Assembly (NCBI GenBank): GCA_964511375.1
Contig: CAZEEW010000002.1
Location: 36,157-100,156, forward strand
DNA length: 64,000 nucleotides
Direction: 5' to 3'
Origin: an uncultured Gammaproteobacteria bacterium
Lineage (GTDB): Bacteria; Patescibacteriota; Patescibacteriia; Magasanikbacterales; GWA2-37-8
Shown here piece after piece: positions 8,579-64,000 of the stretch; the stretch's first letter is position 1; each line of letters opens with the position of its first letter. Under the pieces are notes generated by a model that was not told the DNA's origin, ran no database searches, and saw only the letters and a program-made list of their open reading frames with translations. The position numbers were made by a program, and so were the translations under genes.

Positions 8579-8613
8579 ATTGACAAAAGACAGGGGATAT
8601 AGTAGAATTTCCG
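8579..8613 (+). promoter_or_regulatory. Sigma70-like promoter for rpsL-rpsG-fusA (TTGACA-17-TAGAAT)
   Basis: ttgacaaaagacaggggatatagtagaat. Confidence 0.55.
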
Positions 8614-8684
8614 CAGAACGTTGAACAAAAATCTCGTGGCTGAGCAATTTCGTTCAGCTTTTTTGTATCCAAGTTAATTTATTT

Positions 8685-9113
8685 ATGCCTACATTAAACC
8701 AAATAATGCGCAAAGGCCGAACCCCAAAGGTTCAAAAAACCAAGTCTCCGGCCTTGCAATTTACGGTCGACAACTTACACCGTAAGAAAACAGTTTTTGC
8801 AAAGGGAACCAGTTTTAAGCGTGGTGTTTGTACCAAGGTGTACACCACTACTCCTAAAAAACCAAACTCTGCTTTGCGTAAAGTTGCCAAAGTTCGTTTG
8901 TCCAATGGTATGGAAGTTATCGCTTACATTCCAGGCGAAGGACACAATCTTCAGGAACACTCTATCGTCCTTATCCGCGGTGGTCGTGTAAAAGACTTAC
9001 CAGGTGTCCGCTACCACATTGTACGCGGTGTTTATGATACTCAAGGTGTAGAAAAGAGACGACGTGGTCGCAGTCGTTATGGTGCCAAGAGACCGAAAGA
9101 AGCGAAAAAGTAA
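8685..9113 (+). CDS. rpsL: 30S ribosomal protein S12
   Basis: MPTLNQ…KGR…[10 protein letters not shown] hallmark. Confidence 0.95.
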
Positions 9114-9643: not shown

Positions 9644-11719
9644 ATGCCTCGAGAATTTAGTTTAGATAAAACTCGTAATATCGGTATTGCCGCGCACATT
9701 GATGCCGGTAAAACCACTACGACCGAACGTGTGCTTTTTTACACAGGTCGTAAACACAAAATTGGTGAGGTGCACGAAGGTGCGGCCGAAATGGACTGGA
9801 TGGAACAGGAAAAAGAACGCGGCATTACCATTACTTCCGCTGCGACTACTTGTTTTTGGAAAGATCACCGCATTAACATCATCGATACACCAGGTCACGT
9901 GGACTTTACTGTAGAAGTAGAACGTTCTTTGCGTGTATTGGATGGTGCAGTGGCTGTTTTCGATGGTTCACAAGGTGTTGAACCGCAGTCTGAAACTGTC
10001 TGGCATCAAGCAGATAAATATCACGTACCTCGTGTTTGTTTTATTAACAAAATGGACAAGATGGGCGCGGACTTTTACATGAGCTTGGATTCTATCCGGG
10101 AACGTTTGTCTCCAAATGCTTTTGCTATTCAGTTACCAATCGGTCAAGAAAGTTCCTTTAGTGGTATCATTGATCTTATTGAAGAAAAAGCTTACAAATT
10201 TGAGGGTATGAATGGTGAAAAAATGATAGAAATTGACATTCCTGAGGACATGAAGGAAAAAGTGAAAGATCATCGCCATAAAATGGTAGAAAAAGTGGCT
10301 GAAGCCTCTGACGATCTCATGACCAAGTATTTGAACGGTGAAGCCTTAAGCATTGAGGAAATTAAAGCTGGGATCCGTGCTTTGGTAGTTAAAAATGCCA
10401 TGCAACCAGTTATCTGTGGCTCTGCTTTAGCCAACATTGGTGTTCAATTAATGTTAGATTCGGTTGTTTGGTACTTACCATCACCATTGGACGTACCTCC
10501 AGTAAAAGGTATTAATCCAAATAATGAACAAGAAGAAGAAAGAAAAACCAGCGACGACGAATCGTTCTCTGCTCTAGCTTTCAAGATTGCCACTGACCCC
10601 TTCGTTGGTAAACTCGCTTTCTTCCGTGTTTATTCTGGTAAGATTTCTGCTGGTAGTTATTTATACAATGCCACGACTGGTAACAAGGAGCGCTTAGGTC
10701 GTATCGTCCGCATGCATGCTAATCATCGGGAAGACGTAACTGATGTTTACGCTGGTGAAATCGCTGCCGCCATTGGTTTGAAAGAAGTTACTACTGGTGA
10801 CACTTTGTGTGATGAGAATAAACCAATTGTTTTGGAAAAGATTACTTTCCCAGAACCGGTTATCTCAGTTGCGATCGAACCAAAAACCAAGGCTGACCAA
10901 GAAAAGATTGGCTTGGCTTTACAGAAATTGGCTGAAGAAGATCCAACCTTCAAAGTCCATACTGACGAAGAAACTCTCCAGACTATTATTTCTGGTATGG
11001 GTGAGTTGCACTTGGATATTATCGTTGACCGCATGAAACGCGAGTTTAAAGTAGAAGCCAACGTCGGTGCCCCACAGGTTGCTTACAAAGAAGCAATTAA
11101 GATGAGCGCTGAAGGTGAAGGTAAATACATTAAACAGTCTGGTGGTCGTGGTCAGTACGGTCATTGTTGGTTACGTGTTGAGCCACAGGAGCGCGGTAAA
11201 GGTTTTGAATTTATTGATGAAGTTAAAGGTGGTGTAGTTCCTCGTGAATACTTACCAGCGATTGAAAAAGGTGTCAAAGAATCCATTTCACGTGGTATCC
11301 AAGCTGGGTACCCGGTTGTAGATGTTAAAGTTACTTGTTTTGATGGTTCTTACCACGAAGTTGACTCTTCAGAAATGGCCTTTAAAATGGCCGGCTCCAT
11401 GGCTTTCCAGGATGCCTGCCATAAAGGTAATCCGGTAATATTGGAACCAATCATGAAGGTGGAAGTAGTCACACCAGAACAATATATGGGTGAAGTAATT
11501 GGTGACCTTAACTCCAAGCGAGGTCAGATTCAAGAAATGACTGATCGTGGCCAGATGAAAGTTGTTCGGGCCATGGTACCCTTGGCAAGCATGTTTGGTT
11601 ATGCCACCTCTTTACGCAGTATGTCTCAGGGTCGCGCTAGTTACGCAATGGAATTCGATCATTACGCTGACGTACCAAACAATGTTGCTCAACAGATTAT
11701 TGAGGGAAAGAAGAAATAG
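9644..11719 (+). CDS. fusA: Elongation factor G
   Basis: [32 protein letters not shown]; 691 aa. Confidence 0.95.
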
Positions 11720-11735
11720 CCTCTTAAACGATGAA

Positions 11736-11764
11736 AGCCTCGCATTGAGCGGGGCTTTTCTTTT
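11736..11764 (+). terminator. Rho-independent terminator after fusA (aagcctcgc-attga-gcggggctt-TTTT)
   Basis: Stem-loop + T-run; near-identical copy at 12461-12487. Confidence 0.7.
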
Positions 11765-11827
11765 GCAACTCTCTTGTTGACTTAAGAAAAATATTTTATA
11801 CTATGACCGTAACTAATTTAGGATATT

Positions 11828-12457
11828 ATGGGAGATAAGCCAGCATTTTTTGGAGACAGAATCCACAACGCACTGGATCAGAAAGAAATTCAATACGAAA
11901 TTAAGACCCCGCCCGTCTGGTATATACAGGGCTCTTATGTCTTGGACAAAATATTTGGTGTACGTTTAGCGAGAGATGTAGACATTTTTGCCCCACAAGG
12001 AGGCAGCCCGCCTCAATTAGAAACTATTGATGATCTGCCTGTCCACCTGACTGAGGTCGGGGATAAATCATATTTTCCGCCTGTGCTTGGCACGTATAAT
12101 ACTGACCGCTATCTGCTTGATCCTGCTGGGCAGGTTATAAAACCAAGCGGTTTCCCGGAGCGGCCCATAAGATTAGAGTTGTTGCCCGGGAGAAAATTAA
12201 GTATTGTTAACGTTGTCCGTGGAGTTAAGGTTTGTAAAAGGTATGGTTTAGAATACTCTCCTGAATTAAAAGATGAGATGACTAAGTCACTACGCAAATT
12301 ACTAAGTAAACAATCGATGGCGATGCTCATGATATTTAGCGAATCAGATTTGGCTGAATTTATTAAAGAAACTGTTGAAGCAGAAACTTCTGAAGAAGAG
12401 AGAGGAAAAGTTTGGCAGGAAATGATAGCCTTGTGCCCGAAATTAGCTAGTAAATAA
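11828..12457 (+). CDS. Nucleotidyltransferase-fold (Pol beta superfamily-like) protein, hypothetical
   Basis: GS-x12-DVD motif (GSYVLDKIFGVRLARDVDIF) typical of minimal NTase fold. Confidence 0.45.
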   Translation: MGDKPAFFGDRIHNALDQKEIQYEIKTPPVWYIQGSYVLDKIFGVRLARDVDIFAPQGGSPPQLETIDDLPVHLTEVGDKSYFPPVLGTYNTDRYLLDPAGQVIKPSGFPERPIRLELLPGRKLSIVNVVRGVKVCKRYGLEYSPELKDEMTKSLRKLLSKQSMAMLMIFSESDLAEFIKETVEAETSEEERGKVWQEMIALCPKLASK

Positions 12458-12460
12458 ATC

Positions 12461-12487
12461 AAAGCCCCGCATTGTGCGGGGCTTTTG
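12461..12487. terminator. Bidirectional terminator (gccccgc-attgt-gcggggc), near-identical to the fusA terminator
   Basis: Perfect 7-bp GC stem + T-run; 24/26 identical to 11736-11761. Confidence 0.7.
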
Positions 12488-12793
12488 TTAGGCCGCTTCC
12501 TTGTTCTCTTCATCATCTGGACTTGAGACATCTGGATCTAATTCCAGTTCTTCATTTTCATCGTTTCCTGGTCCACCGAAAGCATCGCGCCTCAAACTTT
12601 CCTCTGTATCTTCATCATCAAACATCTCGTCTAGACTTTTCCCTGGCACTTCCGTACTTTTCAACTCGTGAACTGCTTTTTGTAAAGGTGTTTCTTTTCT
12701 TTTGGCACCGGGTATTTCTGGTGGTAATTCAGAGGTATCAAAAATCTCGTCTATAGATTTTCCTAGTTTAGGCTCACCATTTTTTCTTAGCAT
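12488..12793 (-). CDS. Small acidic protein with internal repeat (GKSIDEIFD… / GKSLDEMFD…)
   Basis: ORF with two ~35-aa acidic repeats; no known motif. Confidence 0.4.
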   Translation of the reverse strand: MLRKNGEPKLGKSIDEIFDTSELPPEIPGAKRKETPLQKAVHELKSTEVPGKSLDEMFDDEDTEESLRRDAFGGPGNDENEELELDPDVSSPDDEENKEAA

Positions 12794-12798
12794 ATAAA

Positions 12799-13770
12799 TT
12801 ATTTTAAAAATACATTACGAATAACTTGGTCGATTTCGACTTCGTTAATAAGAATATCATCAACCGGAAAATCATTCAAGAGTTTTATGGCAACTTGTTT
12901 CGCTTCTGTCTTTGGCACTTCTAAAACCGTTCGCTGCGGTGTTTTTTCTTTAATATTCCCTAATTTCTCTAAAGAACTATTTTGAATAGGTTCAGTAAAG
13001 GTCACTTCCAAAACTTTGTGATGTACGTATTGGTCGATTAATTTTCTTAGTCCACCATCGTAAATAATATTACCGTGATTAACAATGATTACCCTTTCAC
13101 ACAAAGCTTCAACATCTTCCATATAATGCGAAGTGAGTACGATCGTAATCTTTTTTTCTCTGTTGTACTTTTTTAAGAATTCTCTAATGTTGTTTTGAGA
13201 TATCACATCCAAACCAATCGTCGGCTCGTCCAAGAATAATACCTTGGGGGAATGAATTAAGGCCGCAACTAACTCACATTTCATTCTTTGGCCTAAAGAT
13301 AATTTACGAACTGGAATATCTAAGATGTCTTTAATATCTAGCAAAGTCGTTAATTCCTCTAAGGTTTGTTCAAACTGTTTTTTTGGTATTTCGTAAATTT
13401 CTTTGTTTAAAATAAAACTTTCCATGGCTGGTAAATCCCACCATAGCTGGTTTTTCTGACCCATGACTAGAGCAAATTGTTTCTGGAATTCTGCCTGTCG
13501 TTTCCAAGGAGTAAAGCCTAACACTTTCGCCTCTCCCGAGGTGGGGTAAAGAATACCGGAAAGCATTTTCAGTGTCGTCGTTTTACCGGCACCATTTGGT
13601 CCTAAGAAACCCACCATCTCTCCTTCTTGAATAGTAAAGTCTATTTGTTTTACTGCTTCAGTATAAAGTTTTTGTCGATGGAATAAACTTTTGACTGAGT
13701 TCCACAGCCCAGCTTGTTTTTTGTAATATTCGTAGGTTTTAGATAAACCTTTAACTTCAATAATCGCCAT
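12799..13770 (-). CDS. ABC transporter ATP-binding protein
   Basis: Walker A GPNGAGKTT, signature LSLGQ, Walker B LFLDEPT. Confidence 0.9.
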   Translation of the reverse strand: MAIIEVKGLSKTYEYYKKQAGLWNSVKSLFHRQKLYTEAVKQIDFTIQEGEMVGFLGPNGAGKTTTLKMLSGILYPTSGEAKVLGFTPWKRQAEFQKQFALVMGQKNQLWWDLPAMESFILNKEIYEIPKKQFEQTLEELTTLLDIKDILDIPVRKLSLGQRMKCELVAALIHSPKVLFLDEPTIGLDVISQNNIREFLKKYNREKKITIVLTSHYMEDVEALCERVIIVNHGNIIYDGGLRKLIDQYVHHKVLEVTFTEPIQNSSLEKLGNIKEKTPQRTVLEVPKTEAKQVAIKLLNDFPVDDILINEVEIDQVIRNVFLK

Positions 13771-57096: not shown

Positions 57097-59652
57097 ATGA
57101 TTGAATTTGGCCCTAAACCGGAGGGGCTAAAGATAGAAGCAAAAGAGCAAGAAAGGGTTAATGATGTCGCTCGGGTTTTTTTAGTTACAACCAGAACCTC
57201 AAGAGAGTTAACGCCCGATTATATCGAAGATCTAGGTGGTTTATCCCAAGTATTTTTAACAACTGGTTTATGGCTGGAAAAAGGGGAGGGTAGCGTTAAT
57301 GAGGGGCAGGTGATGCCAGTCGGTGGTAACAGAAAACTGAGGAAAAACGGTGAACCCGCAGAATCACTAAGAGCAACCGCCAGCCGCGAAAGTCGAGAAG
57401 AAGCCAGGTTAAATGTGGAGGAAAGCAGCCTCAAGGAATTGGGAGACGTTAAATATGTCATTGACCATCCTACAAAAGGGAGGTTAAAAATTAAGAGTCA
57501 TTATTATTTGGGTCGAATAAGCCCTCACGACGAAGCGCGTCAGTTGTATGAAGATGAAGACAAGATTCGCAATTTTTTACGGTTAGATGCACTCGGCCAT
57601 GCCACGTTGATGGGAGGGGTACGAGTAGACCAGAGGACAGAAGATGAATTCAAAGGGTGGGTCCGTGATCCCAGATTATTAGACAGTCTACAAAGTCCAT
57701 CCTTACCTAGTCGACCAAATTTATTGCCGACAAAAAATAAAGTGGCCCAAGCAGTTTTTGTAAACCCGGGTGAGGACAAGACCTTGACCACTGAAGAGAA
57801 AAAGAAGGCTGAAATAGAGTATGACGAGTCAGTACGCACCTTACAGATGAACTTAATGGTCGAGATGCAAAAGATCGAGGCAGATACAAAGCTTGCTATT
57901 TTAAGGGCTTTTTTAAGAAATTACCCACCAGAATCTGAGGAGTTAGAATACCAAAAGTTTGCACAGTTATTAAATAATAATGATGAAGAAGTATTAACCC
58001 CGGGCATCGTTGTTGGCGATCTTTGGCCTGGGATGATTAGATACCTTGAAAAAAGATATTCTAAGAGCGTGATACGCAAAAAATTTTACGAAGAGTTGGA
58101 CAAACAAAATTTAAATTTTGATGTTGAAGCAGCGGAGTCGCCGGCGGAAATTGTAATTAGATCAGTGTACACTCTCCTTGAATCTCATAATTTTTCGGGC
58201 GAATATTTTACGAGCAGTCGCCCAGAAATGAAAAAATTTGTTGAATCTATTATGAGGTTTATTGACGATGTAATTAAAAAATACGGATTAACTAAGCCGA
58301 AAAGACTAGGTCTGGCTGAGAAAATGGGCTACGTCAAAGATCTATTGGAGGATGTGGCGGGCGAGCCTCGAAAATGCGAAAAAGTTGAACAGATGTTTGC
58401 TCGCGATTTGGATTTACCCGAGAGACAGCTGGTTGAATTTAGAAACTCAGTTAATAATTTCCTAGTAATAATGGCGAATAAGATTATTGAGCGTTATCAG
58501 AGGCTACATAAAGGTAAAGCTGTCGCGGTCGACCCCGATCCTTTAAACGATATTAAAGACGGTGCGTTAGTTGATGTGATAAATGTTGCTTTGCCCGATT
58601 CCAGCAAGGGTGTGCGGCGAGATTGGAAAGTGCGAGAAAAGGTAGGAGAAGAGGAAGACGCAAAAAATAATTTACGACGAAAAGTTTTTGAGGCTAGACG
58701 TCTAATCGCTCTTATGTACTCCTTAAATCGTAGCTTTGATTTTTATAATCGTACAATTCTTAATGGTCGCGCACCAGTTGAGCGTATTTTTACCAGTTTA
58801 ACCAGTGGTGCAGAACAACGAAGAAAAAGAATAAAAATTGCGCAAGGTAAAAAAGGTGGATATATTGAAAATGTTGAGATTTTAAGTAGCGATAAACAAA
58901 GGGAGGAAAATAGCAGCCCAGTTGTTCTGCGTCAGGCCAGAGGTGTTTTGGCTGAATTATCCCCGGGCTTAAAAATGGAGGTGGATTCCCATGTCAAAAC
59001 TTTGCCATCATTTTATCGCAAAATACTACAATTCCGATTTGATGACGACCCCTCTACAAAAGTGCAAGACATATACCGTCGCGCGCTTACTCTTGAAAAC
59101 AGTAGCTTAAAACGGGTCGTAATTTCTGAAAGAATGGGTAAATATATTGCCGACGGTAAATTTACCATGGTTGAACCAAGATCAAAATTACAGAAAACTG
59201 TCTCGGCGGACGAACCAGACTACGAAGATGCCTTAAACATTGCGGAAGCGATTTTAATCGAAGGAAATCAGCACCCTGGGCAGCAGGTAAGAGTCATCGA
59301 TTATCGTCCTTGTGCGGCTGAAGGTGCAGGTTATGAAAGTCCATTTGGATCAGGAAGAATTCGTTTCAGTAAGTTTACGATTGAGCATACGGACGAAAAA
59401 GGTAATAAACGCTACGAGGAAGTCCAAATATATTTCCCAACTAGCGACGGCAAAAGTGCCTTTTATTGGAAAGAATTAAAAAAACGCGATGATGAATTCT
59501 TTTTCTTCGATCGCATTTTAAAAAGTCCTTACGCTCATTCTTTGGCAGATTTACTATTCCCGCCACAAATCTATGGAGAACTAGTGCATTTAGTGCACTA
59601 TAAGGATAAACAACAAGAGCTAGAAGATTTGATGAGTTTAAAAATTGGATAG
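57097..59652 (+). CDS. Large (851 aa) hypothetical protein with degenerate Nudix-like N-terminal domain
   Basis: N-term VARVFLVTT…GLWLEKGEG…GGNRKLRKNGEPAESLRATASRESREEARL (E-x7-REUxEE remnant of Nudix box); remaining ~700 aa unmatched. Confidence 0.5.
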   Translation: MIEFGPKPEGLKIEAKEQERVNDVARVFLVTTRTSRELTPDYIEDLGGLSQVFLTTGLWLEKGEGSVNEGQVMPVGGNRKLRKNGEPAESLRATASRESREEARLNVEESSLKELGDVKYVIDHPTKGRLKIKSHYYLGRISPHDEARQLYEDEDKIRNFLRLDALGHATLMGGVRVDQRTEDEFKGWVRDPRLLDSLQSPSLPSRPNLLPTKNKVAQAVFVNPGEDKTLTTEEKKKAEIEYDESVRTLQMNLMVEMQKIEADTKLAILRAFLRNYPPESEELEYQKFAQLLNNNDEEVLTPGIVVGDLWPGMIRYLEKRYSKSVIRKKFYEELDKQNLNFDVEAAESPAEIVIRSVYTLLESHNFSGEYFTSSRPEMKKFVESIMRFIDDVIKKYGLTKPKRLGLAEKMGYVKDLLEDVAGEPRKCEKVEQMFARDLDLPERQLVEFRNSVNNFLVIMANKIIERYQRLHKGKAVAVDPDPLNDIKDGALVDVINVALPDSSKGVRRDWKVREKVGEEEDAKNNLRRKVFEARRLIALMYSLNRSFDFYNRTILNGRAPVERIFTSLTSGAEQRRKRIKIAQGKKGGYIENVEILSSDKQREENSSPVVLRQARGVLAELSPGLKMEVDSHVKTLPSFYRKILQFRFDDDPSTKVQDIYRRALTLENSSLKRVVISERMGKYIADGKFTMVEPRSKLQKTVSADEPDYEDALNIAEAILIEGNQHPGQQVRVIDYRPCAAEGAGYESPFGSGRIRFSKFTIEHTDEKGNKRYEEVQIYFPTSDGKSAFYWKELKKRDDEFFFFDRILKSPYAHSLADLLFPPQIYGELVHLVHYKDKQQELEDLMSLKIG

Positions 59653-59659
59653 GCAATCT

Positions 59660-61033
59660 TTACTGGTTAACTACTTTCTCCACGACTTCTTGAACATTTT
59701 TTATAGGGGCAAGTTTGAGACCAACTGCTTTTCCGTATTTTGATCCAGTTGGGAATACAGCAAATTCAAAACCCATATTCTTTATTTCGTTTAATCTTTT
59801 ATCGGTCTGGTTCACACTCCTTACCTCGCCACCTAAACCCACCTCGCCAAAGGCAGCGAGGTTTTTTGGTAAAGTCTTATTTTTTATACCTGAAGCAATA
59901 GCGAGAACAACTGCCAGATCGGCTGCTGGCTCATCCGCTTGCAGGCCGCCAACTACATTTAGAAATACATCGTAGGAGTCTAAGGGTAGGCCGGCTCGAC
60001 GGGAGAGTACGCCAATTAATACCTGAAGGCGGTTTAAATCAAAGCCTGATGCGCGTCGCTGCGGATACCCAAAGTTCGTTTTGGTTACCAAGGCCTGTAC
60101 TTCAACCAGAATAGGCCGTGTTCCTTCTAATAAACAAGTAATAACACTACCCGGAACATTATCACCGCGTTCAGCTAGAAACACAGCAGAAGGGCTTTTA
60201 ACTTCTTTGAGGCCGTTTTCTTCCATCGAAAACACTCCCACTTCGTCTATCGAGCCGAAACGATTTTTAGCGGCCCTTAAAATTCGGTGTTCATGGAATC
60301 GATCTCCTTCAAGATAGAGAACAGTATCAACTAAATGCTCAAGTGTTTTCGGGCCAGCCACCAAACCTTCTTTTGTAACTTGACCGATAATGACCACAGT
60401 AACACTACTAGTTTTAGCTAGATCCATCAATTTAGTAGTGCAGGCGCGAACCTGGTTCACATTTCCTGGAGTGCCTTCAACTTCGTCAGTATACACAGTT
60501 TGGATAGAATCTACGATCACTAAGTTCGGACGGTCATTATTTTTTATCAAATCATTAATCGTGGCAATAATACTGTCAATATTTGTGGCACTGGCCAGTC
60601 GTAAATTAGTATAGGTTAATTTTAATCTTTCCGAACGCAGTTTAACCTGTTCAGCAGATTCTTCACCAGAAAAATATACACAGTTAGGTGAAGAGATGGC
60701 TATTTGTAAGGCTAAAGTAGATTTTCCAATACCCGGCTCGCCACCAAGTAAGATTAGAGAGCCAGGAACAATCCCGCCTCCCAATACCCGATCAAGTTCA
60801 CTGTTGCTGGTTGAAAATCTTTTAAAGTTTGCAGCCTTAATCTCTTTTAGAGCAGAGATTTTTAAAGCGGCGTGACTCTTTCCGTCAGAAGTTGAAGAAA
60901 AACGGATCTTTTCTTCAGGTTGTTCTTCAACAACTGTACCCCATTTTCCGCATTCTAGACACTTGCCCATCCATTTATGGAATTGGGCTCCACAGTTGGT
61001 ACAGGTAAATAGTTTATCAGCATTTTTAGGCAT
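59660..61033 (-). CDS. radA: DNA repair protein RadA/Sms
   Basis: N-terminal C4 zinc finger CTNCGAQF…CLECGKW, Walker A GGEPGIGKST, Lon-like C-domain. Confidence 0.92.
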   Translation of the reverse strand: MPKNADKLFTCTNCGAQFHKWMGKCLECGKWGTVVEEQPEEKIRFSSTSDGKSHAALKISALKEIKAANFKRFSTSNSELDRVLGGGIVPGSLILLGGEPGIGKSTLALQIAISSPNCVYFSGEESAEQVKLRSERLKLTYTNLRLASATNIDSIIATINDLIKNNDRPNLVIVDSIQTVYTDEVEGTPGNVNQVRACTTKLMDLAKTSSVTVVIIGQVTKEGLVAGPKTLEHLVDTVLYLEGDRFHEHRILRAAKNRFGSIDEVGVFSMEENGLKEVKSPSAVFLAERGDNVPGSVITCLLEGTRPILVEVQALVTKTNFGYPQRRASGFDLNRLQVLIGVLSRRAGLPLDSYDVFLNVVGGLQADEPAADLAVVLAIASGIKNKTLPKNLAAFGEVGLGGEVRSVNQTDKRLNEIKNMGFEFAVFPTGSKYGKAVGLKLAPIKNVQEVVEKVVNQ

Positions 61034-61034
61034 A

Positions 61035-62801
61035 TTAGTTTGGTCGGAATGTTTTAATCAATGGTTTCATTTTATCTCCGCAAGCAGTCTTTAGGCAAGT
61101 CTCACTGAGGCGTGCTGGTTTTCCAGCACTACCATTCAGTGTGATGGCCCATCCACTACTTGCATCACCATTTTTCCAGCCTAGAAACATACCGGTATGC
61201 AAACCAGACGAATAAACTGTTTTTTCACCAATCACTTGTCCCTTTTTATCCTTAATTTTTTTAATTGAAGTTACCCCCAGAGAGTTTGCGTTATATATCC
61301 AGTAAGAATCCCCTGGTTGCAACTCGTTTGCCCACTCGTCAGGCCAACCAGGAATTCCTGCCGCCCTGATACCGGCCGCGGCCTTTTTCATTGCCTCTTC
61401 TTGAGTCTTGCTGCACGTAGGGCAGTTATACTTTTCGCCGGTTGAAAGTACTATTTCTTTTGGAAGGGACTTCATCCCTCTAGCTGATTGTAAAATACTG
61501 CAGCCACCTTTAATAAATAAACATGATGGGTCGTAGGCGCCAGTATTAGCACGGGCAAGACGGTAAATAGTTCCAGCAGTTCTTCCACATGAACCAAAAT
61601 GCACGTTGCATTTTAGAGCTGCATCGGCGACTTGTTTAACTCTTTCTGCCACTGACCCGCCGGTTACAATCTTGCTAACGCTATTAAAGAATTCTTTATT
61701 TCGAGGTTCAGACTCTGGATGGCCTGAAGGATTAAACGGTGACGTTAGTGGTAATGGACAATCGGGATATGCTGAAGAATAACTTCCAGTGTAGGCAGGG
61801 GTTGCCACACTTCCCGTACTGGCGAACGAACCTGAATCAGAAATATTTGTAGTATCAAATTCAGTTGTTTGCATTTCCTCAAAAGCGGGGAGGTCCTCTT
61901 GCTCTATGTATAGGATTTTTAAGCTTTTAAATCTGACAAGCTCAGGGTTGATTGTATATAAAATAACGTATGATCCCCACATGACTATCAAGCCGATCAC
62001 CGCCTTTGTAATTCCTTTGTAGGCTTCGCTTTTGGCTGATCCACCAGCAGAAACAACTACCTTAGCTCCTTGGATTATTATCATTACCACAGCTACAATA
62101 CTAACTATACCCAAGGCAAAATTAAATATTGCTCCCATATATTCACCAATCCAGGGTATTAGGATAAAAGTACCTTCTGGTTCTTCTACAACATTTTTAC
62201 TTACGTCGCTAAAACCACCCGATAAAGTGGGGAGCTTAATATTAGTTTTAGGCTGGAATAGTTCAATGTCAGATTTAATTACTGGGAGCTGGTTCGCCTG
62301 ACTTTGTTGGTAAAATGCAAATGACTGCTCAGTTAGATAACAACTTCCACCCATACATTTATTATTTGGGTCAGTACCTAAAACACGACATAAGGTATCA
62401 TCATCTTGTTCAGCATCATTTTTGCATTCTTTGGTAGATTTTTTTAAACACAAGCCGCCGGTGTTTGGAGCATTGTTACACAGCTCACCAACTGCACAGA
62501 TAACCTGACCGCAGGTATGTGCGGTTGGTGCCTTGCAGATTTTTGTAGTGCCACTTTGTAATAAACACGTTAATCCACTACGGCAATCTGAGGTGTACTG
62601 GCAGACTGCACCTTCACCGCCTGGTGGTTGGCAAGTGTGCCCGGCAATTGCTGAACATATAAGAGCCGGTAGACAATCTGAAGTGTCTTGACACTGATCA
62701 CCCGTGCTTCCAACTGCCAAGACCTGGGCCGGTAAGAGAAAGAGTATTGAAAATAATACCCCTAAACTTGATGCTGCGATTTTATTTTTAAATAGATTCA
62801 T
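61035..62801 (-). CDS. Secreted Cys-rich surface protein (paralog 1) with two-TM hairpin module and C-terminal CHAP/NlpC-P60-like putative peptidoglycan peptidase domain; start taken at MNLFKNK signal peptide (ORF extends to 62873)
   Basis: Signal peptide; ~20-Cys module; hairpin AIFNFALGIVSIVAVVMIIIQGAKVVVSAGGSAKSEAYKGITKAVIGLIVMWGSYVIL; C-terminal Cys (GSCGRTAGTIY) … His (GLHTGMFLGW) pair. Confidence 0.6.
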   Translation of the reverse strand: MNLFKNKIAASSLGVLFSILFLLPAQVLAVGSTGDQCQDTSDCLPALICSAIAGHTCQPPGGEGAVCQYTSDCRSGLTCLLQSGTTKICKAPTAHTCGQVICAVGELCNNAPNTGGLCLKKSTKECKNDAEQDDDTLCRVLGTDPNNKCMGGSCYLTEQSFAFYQQSQANQLPVIKSDIELFQPKTNIKLPTLSGGFSDVSKNVVEEPEGTFILIPWIGEYMGAIFNFALGIVSIVAVVMIIIQGAKVVVSAGGSAKSEAYKGITKAVIGLIVMWGSYVILYTINPELVRFKSLKILYIEQEDLPAFEEMQTTEFDTTNISDSGSFASTGSVATPAYTGSYSSAYPDCPLPLTSPFNPSGHPESEPRNKEFFNSVSKIVTGGSVAERVKQVADAALKCNVHFGSCGRTAGTIYRLARANTGAYDPSCLFIKGGCSILQSARGMKSLPKEIVLSTGEKYNCPTCSKTQEEAMKKAAAGIRAAGIPGWPDEWANELQPGDSYWIYNANSLGVTSIKKIKDKKGQVIGEKTVYSSGLHTGMFLGWKNGDASSGWAITLNGSAGKPARLSETCLKTACGDKMKPLIKTFRPN

Positions 62802-62802
62802 A

Positions 62803-64000
62803 CTAGTGATAAAACTTCGGGAATGGGCACTTGTTATACATTTCAATCGCCCGATCAACTGACGCCTCACCAAGGCCCATACAGAACCACATCGCTTTTA
62901 GATCGCGATTAGCATGAGCTGTTTGACAGTCTTTCCTTTTGAATTTTTGTAAATGCCAATCCATCAAAGCACGAGTAGAACCCTCAATGTTGAGTAAATC
63001 AGTAACGGTATAAAAATGTTCACCAAATTGTATAGCCCACTCATCGCCATTCGGTCCTTTGACTTTAATAGGCCTTTTGGCTGGATTAATTGTAATTTGT
63101 CGAAGTCCCAAACCCTTCGAAAAACGCCAGTCATAACCGTAATCTGGCGGTTCGTTTTTCTTCGGATTCTTTGTAAAGTCACCAGTGCCGGGAGCGTCAT
63201 TCATAATTTTGTAGCCATCTGGAGTGCGCGCATCGTTATGACAGTGGGTGTAGTTAACGTTTGGATCCGGAAGTTTAACTAATTTGTCTTTGGGGTAGGG
63301 GTTAAGTTTGCTTGAACAGTCAGACGTATCCGGTCCCCATAAATCTTTGGTATCAAATGTTTTGCCTGAATATTTTACACCAGACATTATGAATTGACGG
63401 CGGGCAGCGATTTTCGCTGGACGGCCTTTTCTATCTGTTGTTTTGGCGACGTTTTCATCTATGCCGACGCGTTGTACCGATCGAGATTCTTTACGTACGC
63501 CTGCCCAGAGGAAGCAGCGATCTAGCTTGGACCCGTCAGGCAGAGTAGCAGCATCGGCTAATCCGGCAATTTGGGCGTCAGTTAGTGTTCCGTCTGGTCC
63601 AGTGTTTGCAGCATGAGTGAAATTATCTGAAAATGTAACCGGAACTATATTGCCACTGAAAACCGTTGTGTCATCCCAAGTGTTGTCCTCATTTATTTCT
63701 ATTTCGTCAACTTCAATCGGGTCAATGTATTGGATTTTTAAAGCCTTGAATTTTACTAAATCCGGATTGATTGTATAGAGTAGAGCGTAGGATATCCAAA
63801 GAATGGAAAGACCAATCGCAATCTTTGTTACCTTTTTATACGCCTCACTTTTACCCGAGCCGCCAGCTGAAACTACGACTTTGGCACCCTGGACAATAAT
63901 CATAACGACTCCGACGATGCTTGCTACAGCCAAGCCGAAATTATAAATTCCGGCCAGATATTCGCCGACCCAGGGCAGATGGAGGTAACCTTCTTCGTCA
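62803..64000 (-). CDS. Paralog 2 of the surface protein (5' end beyond window): same two-TM module + C-terminal lytic-transglycosylase (SLT)-like domain
   Basis: Frame stays open to window end (…LPWVGEYLAGIYNFGLAVASIV…); shared hairpin VVMIIVQGAKVVVSAGGSGKSEAYK…; SLT-like ES (VRKESRS) and GLGLRQI motifs; stop 1 nt before paralog 1 start. Confidence 0.55.
   Translation of the reverse strand, partial: DEEGYLHLPWVGEYLAGIYNFGLAVASIVGVVMIIVQGAKVVVSAGGSGKSEAYKKVTKIAIGLSILWISYALLYTINPDLVKFKALKIQYIDPIEVDEIEINEDNTWDDTTVFSGNIVPVTFSDNFTHAANTGPDGTLTDAQIAGLADAATLPDGSKLDRCFLWAGVRKESRSVQRVGIDENVAKTTDRKGRPAKIAARRQFIMSGVKYSGKTFDTKDLWGPDTSDCSSKLNPYPKDKLVKLPDPNVNYTHCHNDARTPDGYKIMNDAPGTGDFTKNPKKNEPPDYGYDWRFSKGLGLRQITINPAKRPIKVKGPNGDEWAIQFGEHFYTVTDLLNIEGSTRALMDWHLQKFKRKDCQTAHANRDLKAMWFCMGLGEASVDRAIEMYNKCPFPKFYH

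Follow-up and report, generated by a model that had tools for sequence, protein, structure and literature searches.

The right-hand end of a 64,000-nt stretch of patescibacterial DNA (hereafter the window; assembly GCA_964511375.1, contig CAZEEW010000002.1, order Magasanikbacterales) carries two adjacent minus-strand genes, P1 and P2, whose products combine a shared two-helix module, resembling the pilin of a type IV secretion system (T4SS), with two different C-terminal domains predicted to be peptidoglycan hydrolases. The genes are co-oriented and lie upstream of radA, with 1 nt between the stop codon of P2 and the ATG of P1 and another 1 nt between the stop codon of P1 and the start of radA, and P2 leaves the window; this arrangement had been described from the letters alone (the sequence-only reading) and is confirmed by the coordinates (Table 1). 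P1 is identical to protein P0001, which is encoded on a 109,445-bp NCBI contig. A mechanical list of open reading frames (ORFs) gives a longer version that starts at TTG 62873; the ATG at 62801 was preferred because the signal peptide begins there. The complete P2 protein (P0014, 537 aa) was retrieved from a 7.3 kb Logan contig (L002) and consists of a signal peptide, an N-terminal domain with 8 Cys, a pilin-like module with two transmembrane helices, and a lysozyme/SLT-like head. A scan for promoters and terminators gave output at chance level.

Table 1. Features of the P1-P2 locus (positions in the window unless preceded by the contig L002)
Feature	Position	Strand	Remarks
P1 (paralog 1), complete gene	61035-62801	minus	ATG at 62801, stop 61035-61037; 588 aa (P0001)
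P1 signal peptide	62715-62801	minus	residues 1-29, MNLFKNK...AQVLA/VG (slash, cleavage site predicted from sequence); hydrophobic segment 7-34
P1 Cys-rich N-terminal domain, predicted extracytoplasmic	62307-62714	minus	residues ~30-165, 16 Cys
P1 pre-helix segment (ELFQPKTNIKLPTLSGGFS...IPWIGEY) and VirB2-like pilin module	61902-62294	minus	ends in NPELVRFKSLKILYIE motif, soon after which homology to fusions from other genomes is lost
P1 C-terminal head, predicted papain-like, NlpC/P60-CHAP type	61038-61784	minus	residues 340-588
P1 head codons	Cys405 61587-61589; His535 61197-61199; Asn556 61134-61136	minus
P2 (paralog 2), 3' 1198 nt of the gene	62803-64000, continues beyond	minus	stop 62803-62805
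P2 pilin-like two-helix module	63721-63981	minus	P0014 residues ~146-232, ends in LYTINPDLVKFKALKIQYI motif
P2 C-terminal head, predicted lysozyme-like/lytic-transglycosylase-like	62806-63669	minus	P0014 residues 250-537
P2 head sites	putative catalytic Glu310-Ser311 codons 63484-63489; GLGLRQIT ~63090-63114	minus
radA	59660-61033	minus	directly downstream of P1; right-hand cassette border kept in ~45 related genomes
u404	L002:3571-4785		404 aa, N-terminal membrane anchor and TolB-like beta-propeller; just past the right end of the window, directly upstream of the DsbA-like gene
DsbA-like thioredoxin	L002:4789-5445		directly upstream of P2; PF13462, 57 bits; position kept in ~50 genomes

A check for signal peptides and membrane helices, which had been proposed along with the sequence-only reading, finds an N-terminal signal peptide and two hydrophobic helices in both proteins (hydropathy segments 7-34, 220-256, and 263-285 in P1; 3-27, 153-186, and 196-217 in P2). 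The helices, which span residues ~220-243 and ~263-285 of P1, are joined by a short, basic, K-rich loop, QGAKVVVSAGGSAKSEAYK, and the hairpin is preceded by ~140-200 residues and followed by ~290. The N-terminal domain of P1 is indeed Cys-rich, with 16 Cys (25 in the whole protein) instead of the ~20 originally estimated, and its similarity to Dickkopf/colipase is only weak. A BLASTP comparison of P1 with P2 returned one significant segment (62/112 identities, 55%, E 4e-39), whose central 92 aa reach 64% identity and in which the loop QGAKVVVSAGGS(A/G)KSEAYK is nearly the same. The shared module of ~90 aa is therefore real, although its description as near-identical was an overstatement. No copy of the module other than those of P1 and P2 is present in the window.

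The module is also widespread outside the window. Homologs of P1 in a collection of 5.8 billion proteins have one common layout, consisting of a signal peptide, a variable N-domain, the motif KP.L.I.IPGL.FS...IPWIGEY, the hairpin, the motif LYTINP.LV.F..LK..YI, and a variable C-terminus, and several of them are annotated with PF18895 (T4SS_pilin). A scan of one genome per species yielded 74 relative loci (L003-L076), essentially all from Patescibacteria (Magasanikbacteria, Uhrbacteria, Komeilibacteria, Falkowbacteria, Saccharibacteria, and others). PF18895 is matched by 55 of the 82 family proteins taken from related genomes (best E 2.4e-26), one of which additionally matches TrbC/VirB2. The ortholog in locus L048 scores 34.8 bits, and P1 itself matches the profile, slightly below its cut-off, with 24.9 bits over residues 217-281. 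The shared module is, judged by these profile matches, the VirB2-like pilin hairpin known from Patescibacteria (PMC12102498; PMC10633639 Table S2), here inside a much larger protein. Of the two topologies that the hairpin had called to mind, VirB2/TrbC pilin and holin, the former is supported by the matches of P1 and its relatives.

At its C-terminus, P1 has a papain-like alpha+beta fold, in which Cys405 (C66 of the domain, in the motif GSCGRTAG) opens the helix 66-76 and His535 (H196, in GLHTGMF) lies on the strand 195-203. Both residues are invariant in 11 sequences, in which Gln/Asn556 on the following strand is at least 90% conserved and an upstream QPGD motif is conserved as well. The domain is predicted to be a papain-like cutter of peptide stems of the NlpC/P60-CHAP type, with Cys405, His535, and Asn556 as putative catalytic residues. 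Its assignment to this type had been suggested from the Cys and His motifs and is borne out by fold and conservation, not by the proposed search with hidden Markov models (HMMs), as PF00877, PF05257, and related HMMs gave no match even at E up to 10.

The head of P2 has a lysozyme-like fold. Glu310-Ser311 (E61-S62 of the domain, in the motif KES) closes the helix 51-61 and is at least 90% conserved in 31 sequences, as are Q191 and T193 of GLGLRQIT. PF01464 does not match P2 but does match 6 of the 31 homologs; the match of P0094 (37.6 bits, cut-off 21.3) extends across the region homologous to P2. A third motif, A-Y-N-x-G, reads AYNGSG in P0094 and is unrecognisable in P2. The SLT-like assignment is upheld by the fold, the conserved Glu-Ser, and the conserved GLGLRQIT residues, and the domain is a predicted SLT-like cutter of glycan strands (Glu310), although the fold alone does not distinguish a lytic transglycosylase from a muramidase. 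NCBIfam models gave nothing significant for P1 and P2, sequence searches of the PDB gave only weak Dickkopf-like matches for P1 and none for P2, a PDB search with the P2-family profile returned nothing useful, and hhalign of whole-protein alignments recovered just the shared module.

The fusion genes occupy a conserved chromosomal cassette, which in ~50 genomes has the order clpC, a variable region, u404, a dsbA-like gene, one to four pilin fusions, radA, and, on the opposite strand, recG. Upstream of P2, contig L002 encodes a clpC-type ATPase, an 834-aa low-complexity protein, the 404-aa protein (u404), and the DsbA-like thioredoxin, all co-directional and separated by gaps of 1-53 nt. The conserved DsbA-like neighbour fits with the idea that the Cys-rich outer domains of the fusions fold oxidatively. 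In L003, a second DsbA-like gene (L003:20135-20869, minus) and a third pilin-module protein of 482 aa (L003:18666-20111, minus) lie ~7 kb from the main cassette, so that the pairing of DsbA and fusion recurs outside the conserved slot. Orthologs of u404 are found in ~48 loci (e.g. L004:7665-8885 and L067:4201-5466); 35 of 38 match TIGR02800 weakly, which is the basis of the TolB-like assignment. The gene lies upstream of dsbA-like and the fusions in ABY1-type genomes and directly downstream of a virB4-adjacent pilin fusion in Saccharibacteria, and looks like an undescribed companion of patescibacterial pilin/T4SS genes. Many of the metagenome-assembled genomes with the cassette are recorded under the title "uncultured Gammaproteobacteria bacterium", which looks like bulk taxonomic mislabelling.

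The domain that follows the hairpin differs widely among the fusions. Clustering of the C-termini in this slot yields P1-type heads (15 proteins), P2-type heads (13), Amidase_2 (10), an unnamed type (8), VanY (6), SLT (5), M15_4, and many singletons. Further Pfam domains in the fusions are M23, Peptidase_C39_2, and 3D, and there are also GDSL esterase, phosphoesterase, and endonuclease-like domains. Head types change even among the closest relatives of the window, L009 and L006, whose RadA proteins are 88% and 87% identical to that of the window. Each has a single fusion, whose N-terminal half and module align with P1 (46-53% identity) but whose head is unrelated, the homology ending 40-70 residues past the junction motif. 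L003 has a P1-type and a P2-type fusion in an order reversed with respect to the window. No small ORF that might encode an immunity protein lies 3' of P1 or P2.

Several variants of the fusion genes were encountered. The GDSL domain is N-terminal in the members inspected individually; in some P2-type fusions (P0042, P0064, and L047:3342-5045), such a GDSL/SGNH esterase replaces the Cys-rich domain, and an O-acetyl-peptidoglycan esterase would be a functionally sensible partner for a lytic transglycosylase. Fusion genes split into overlapping ORFs (e.g. 151 aa and 264 aa) occur at L011:9851-11012 and L020:9092-11195, the latter in a locus with masked bases; the split suggests that one copy has undergone frameshift or become a pseudogene where a locus holds several. 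The cassette of L048 (Komeilibacteria) contains insertions of a GIY-YIG nuclease gene (8598-8885) and of an IS200-like transposase fragment with a Bro-N gene (11671-13118), elements that are possible agents of rearrangement and head exchange.

A link to type IV secretion is evident in other lineages. Genes encoding VirB4 (P-loop_TraG/AAA_10/DUF87) adjoin pilin-module genes in 15 other loci, and the cassette or pilin fusions have virB4 as a neighbour in L048, L054, L050, L065-L067, L070, L072, and L074-L075. The order in L048 is prgI, x, virB4, x, x, u404, (GIY-YIG), dsbA-like, fusion, (IS200-like, Bro-N), radA, recG; that in L067 (Saccharibacteria) is virB4, a 152-aa protein, a 321-aa protein, a 631-aa fusion of pilin and P2-type head, and a u404-like propeller. 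This adjacency fits published observations that recG and radA are common in the vicinity of ABY1 T4SS loci and that Patescibacteria have few classical VirB1 homologs (PMC12102498). In Southlakia epibionticum, lysozyme-like, NlpC/P60-like, and M15-like proteins are encoded beside virB4, and the pilins are small and unfused (PMC10633639 Table S2); according to PMC12102498, peptidase and lysozyme homologues adjacent to virB4 are essential for its epibiotic growth.

The individual parts of the fusions, a VirB2-like pilin and enzymes of the NlpC/P60-CHAP and SLT types, are known, whereas the covalent fusion, the cassette with its conserved order, and the exchange of heads have apparently not been described before; a literature search found no paper on pilin-hydrolase fusions, although its coverage was incomplete and such an absence is no proof. 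PF18895 pilins, such as SEML1_0014-0019 of S. epibionticum, have a signal peptide and a two-helix hairpin and are recognised by the same HMM, and pilins and fusions alike form tandem, sequence-divergent copies that are virB4-adjacent in several lineages. However, the pilins comprise only the hairpin (~100-190 aa), whereas P1 and P2 (588 and 537 aa) carry a Cys-rich domain before it and an enzyme after it and are not located beside virB4 within the window and 5.4 kb upstream. TraG of pIP501 and PrgK of pCF10 are membrane-anchored, extracytoplasmic proteins that combine lytic-transglycosylase-type and CHAP/NlpC-P60-type domains (PMC12102498), as the pair of P1 and P2 is predicted to do. Both domains of TraG and PrgK reside on one polypeptide with a single N-terminal anchor, whereas P1 and P2 are two proteins with a pilin-like hairpin each; the combination of anchor, SLT, and CHAP on one polypeptide encoded in a T4SS operon is not found in P1 and P2. 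Also, the heads of P1 and P2 are too divergent for the SLT, CHAP, and NlpC/P60 HMMs, and those of their relatives are replaced by amidase, M15/VanY, M23, or C39-like domains. SEML1_0006 (lysozyme-lysozyme-NlpC/P60) and SEML1_0007 (M15-like), which are encoded beside VirB4, belong by annotation to the same enzyme classes as the fusions but, unlike P1 and P2, have no PF18895 module annotated.

With about even confidence, we consider P1 and P2 to be wall-cutting partners of a pilin/T4SS apparatus. This reading rests directly on their architecture and folds, on the conservation of the catalytic residues, on the synteny of the cassette, on the turnover of heads, and on the adjacency of virB4 in relatives; from these, we infer membrane topology, enzymatic activity, dependence on a T4SS, and the wall that is cut, be it the cell's own or that of a host. 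The proteins would be exported to the envelope via a cleavable signal peptide, which is followed by a disulfide-rich outer domain. The VirB2-like hairpin would place both ends outside the membrane (N-out/C-out), a topology in keeping with the K-rich loop, with the outer domains being rich in Cys, and with the DsbA-like gene alongside, and a linker of 40-60 residues would connect it to a peptidoglycan hydrolase head outside the cytoplasm. The targets would be glycan strands for P2 and peptide stems for P1, the same classes of bonds that SLT+CHAP VirB1-like hydrolases attack in Gram-positive conjugation, so that the pair would represent a split, pilin-tethered counterpart of these enzymes. Cleavage of glycan and peptide bonds would be confined to the sites at which the machine or pilus passes through a wall. 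In other lineages, the cassette forms the distal end of the prgI-virB4 T4SS locus.

Several results weigh against this interpretation. Although the VirB1-like role in a T4SS, already proposed in the sequence-only reading, is plausible from the prgI-virB4 adjacency in relatives, neither virB4 nor prgI nor any other core gene of a T4SS is present in the window or 5.4 kb upstream (tblastn with three VirB4 sequences found no match in the window, L001, and L002), and the immediate neighbours of the pair are housekeeping genes (clpC, radA, and recG). The match of P1 to PF18895 (E 2.2e-5, positions 4-68 of the 71 in the profile) remains just under the Pfam gathering score of 26.6 bits, and P2 is far below it (9.3 bits and E 1.6 for a fragment, no match for the full-length protein). 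Neither head matches any Pfam hydrolase model directly, and hhalign was uninformative for both, with 3.7% probability for the P1 head profile against a single canonical NlpC/P60 head and 46% for the P2 head against five SLT heads. The P2 head also reads RFSKG instead of RFSHG, the Lys replacing a His that is present in at least 90% of its relatives. Moreover, we know of no demonstration that PF18895 proteins form pili, and a subunit that bears ~200 + 290 extra residues is unlikely to serve as a major pilin.

The housekeeping surroundings would suit a less likely but serious rival explanation, namely that the proteins are ordinary membrane-anchored autolysins for growth and division of the cell's own wall, with the hairpin as a mere anchor and the locus independent of a T4SS in this lineage. 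The window indeed represents a housekeeping region (recG, radA, a LytR-CpsA-Psr gene, der, a Mur ligase gene, topA, relA, dprA, pth, and a sigma factor gene), the gaps of 1 nt make co-transcription with radA probable, and the cassette is present in nearly all related genomes sampled. No virB4 was found within 10 kb in most Magasanikbacteria-like loci, and Pfam scans of the neighbours of L004 and L016 revealed no T4SS genes. No immunity-like gene follows either hydrolase, and amidase, endopeptidase, transglycosylase, and carboxypeptidase make up the usual repertoire of autolysins. However, a dedicated housekeeping enzyme would not usually differ in head type among relatives as close as L009 and L006, the anchor is a PF18895 module in particular, and the same cassette adjoins prgI-virB4 in other lineages. 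A prophage-derived lysis cassette, in which holin-like hairpins are fused to endolysins, is highly improbable and was dropped: a scan of 2.9 million viral contigs turned up no relatives, the cassette keeps its place in the chromosome across ~50 species, no phage genes are nearby, and P1 and P2 have cleavable signal peptides and large Cys-rich N-domains. The absence of viral relatives and the conserved synteny also leave the holin topology unsupported.

The turnover of heads might instead reflect weapons directed at a host, which seems unlikely to us. The T4SS would extract the pilin module into a pilus or its tip and present the heads to the host wall, and the heads would diversify in the manner of polymorphic toxins. 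Both termini of VirB2-type pilins face the exterior of the pilus, which counts in favour of this idea, as do a conserved N-terminal half with unrelated heads that begin just past the NP.LV.F..LK..YI motif, a copy number of 1 to 4, the combination of an N-terminal GDSL/SGNH esterase with a P2-type head in some members, as would be expected against O-acetylated peptidoglycan, and the fact that the T4SS of epibiotic Patescibacteria is essential for growth on the host (PMC10633639). The fusions resemble polymorphic toxins in that a conserved N-terminal half and junction precede unrelated C-terminal enzymes at one locus with variable copy number. They differ from them in that the "trafficking" part is an integral-membrane hairpin, that all recognised heads are wall hydrolases and not nucleases or pore-formers, and that cognate immunity genes are lacking even though the producer has peptidoglycan of its own. 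No evidence points to a pilus, the large appended domains speak against polymerisation, no T4SS core is encoded in the window, and relaxed specificity for any wall-opening activity could also give rise to head turnover. In its boldest and similarly improbable form, this idea makes the pilin hairpin a carrier by which the T4SS, extracting the fusions from the membrane, presents interchangeable hydrolase heads on a pilus or where the cells touch, so that the wall of the host is opened, with recombination past the junction motif tracking host wall chemistry; if true, the result would be a pilus-borne, polymorphic arsenal of wall-degrading enzymes, which would account for the essential role of the T4SS in epibiotic growth.

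Three further genes lie in the vicinity of the cassette. The 834-aa protein between clpC and u404 (L002:1013-3517) is rich in Pro, Glu, and Lys and has one C-terminal hydrophobic helix; a homolog is recognisable only in L009, and other genomes have different genes at that spot. An 851-aa ORF between radA and recG (window 57097-59652, plus strand) has no Pfam match and relatives only in L033 and L040 (28-29% identity), radA and recG being directly adjacent in most related genomes. Just beyond recG, 13 Magasanikbacteria-like loci (L005, L007, L008, L011, L015, L025, L028, L030-L032, L034, L041, and L043) encode a PilB-like T2SSE ATPase (PF00437 and MshEN), followed by an FtsH gene in 12 of the 13; it has no counterpart in the window. 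The MshEN domain identifies this ATPase as PilB-like, and it was rejected as evidence of VirB11; it does indicate that type IV pilus genes neighbour the cassette in those 13 loci.

For the T4SS of Patescibacteria, no substrate is known, a relaxase is usually absent, and recognisable VirB1 homologs are few (PMC12102498, PMC10633639). The pilin-hydrolase fusions with their changing heads, a widespread family, tie the pilin system directly to wall cleavage, and P1 and P2, for which putative catalytic residues can be named, are candidates for the wall-opening activity that is otherwise missing or for enzymes aimed at a host. Their heads also define two predicted hydrolase families that Pfam misses in P1 and P2, one papain-like (P1-type) and one lysozyme-like (P2-type). 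The fusions thereby offer a clue to the job of a secretion system that is essential to epibionts.

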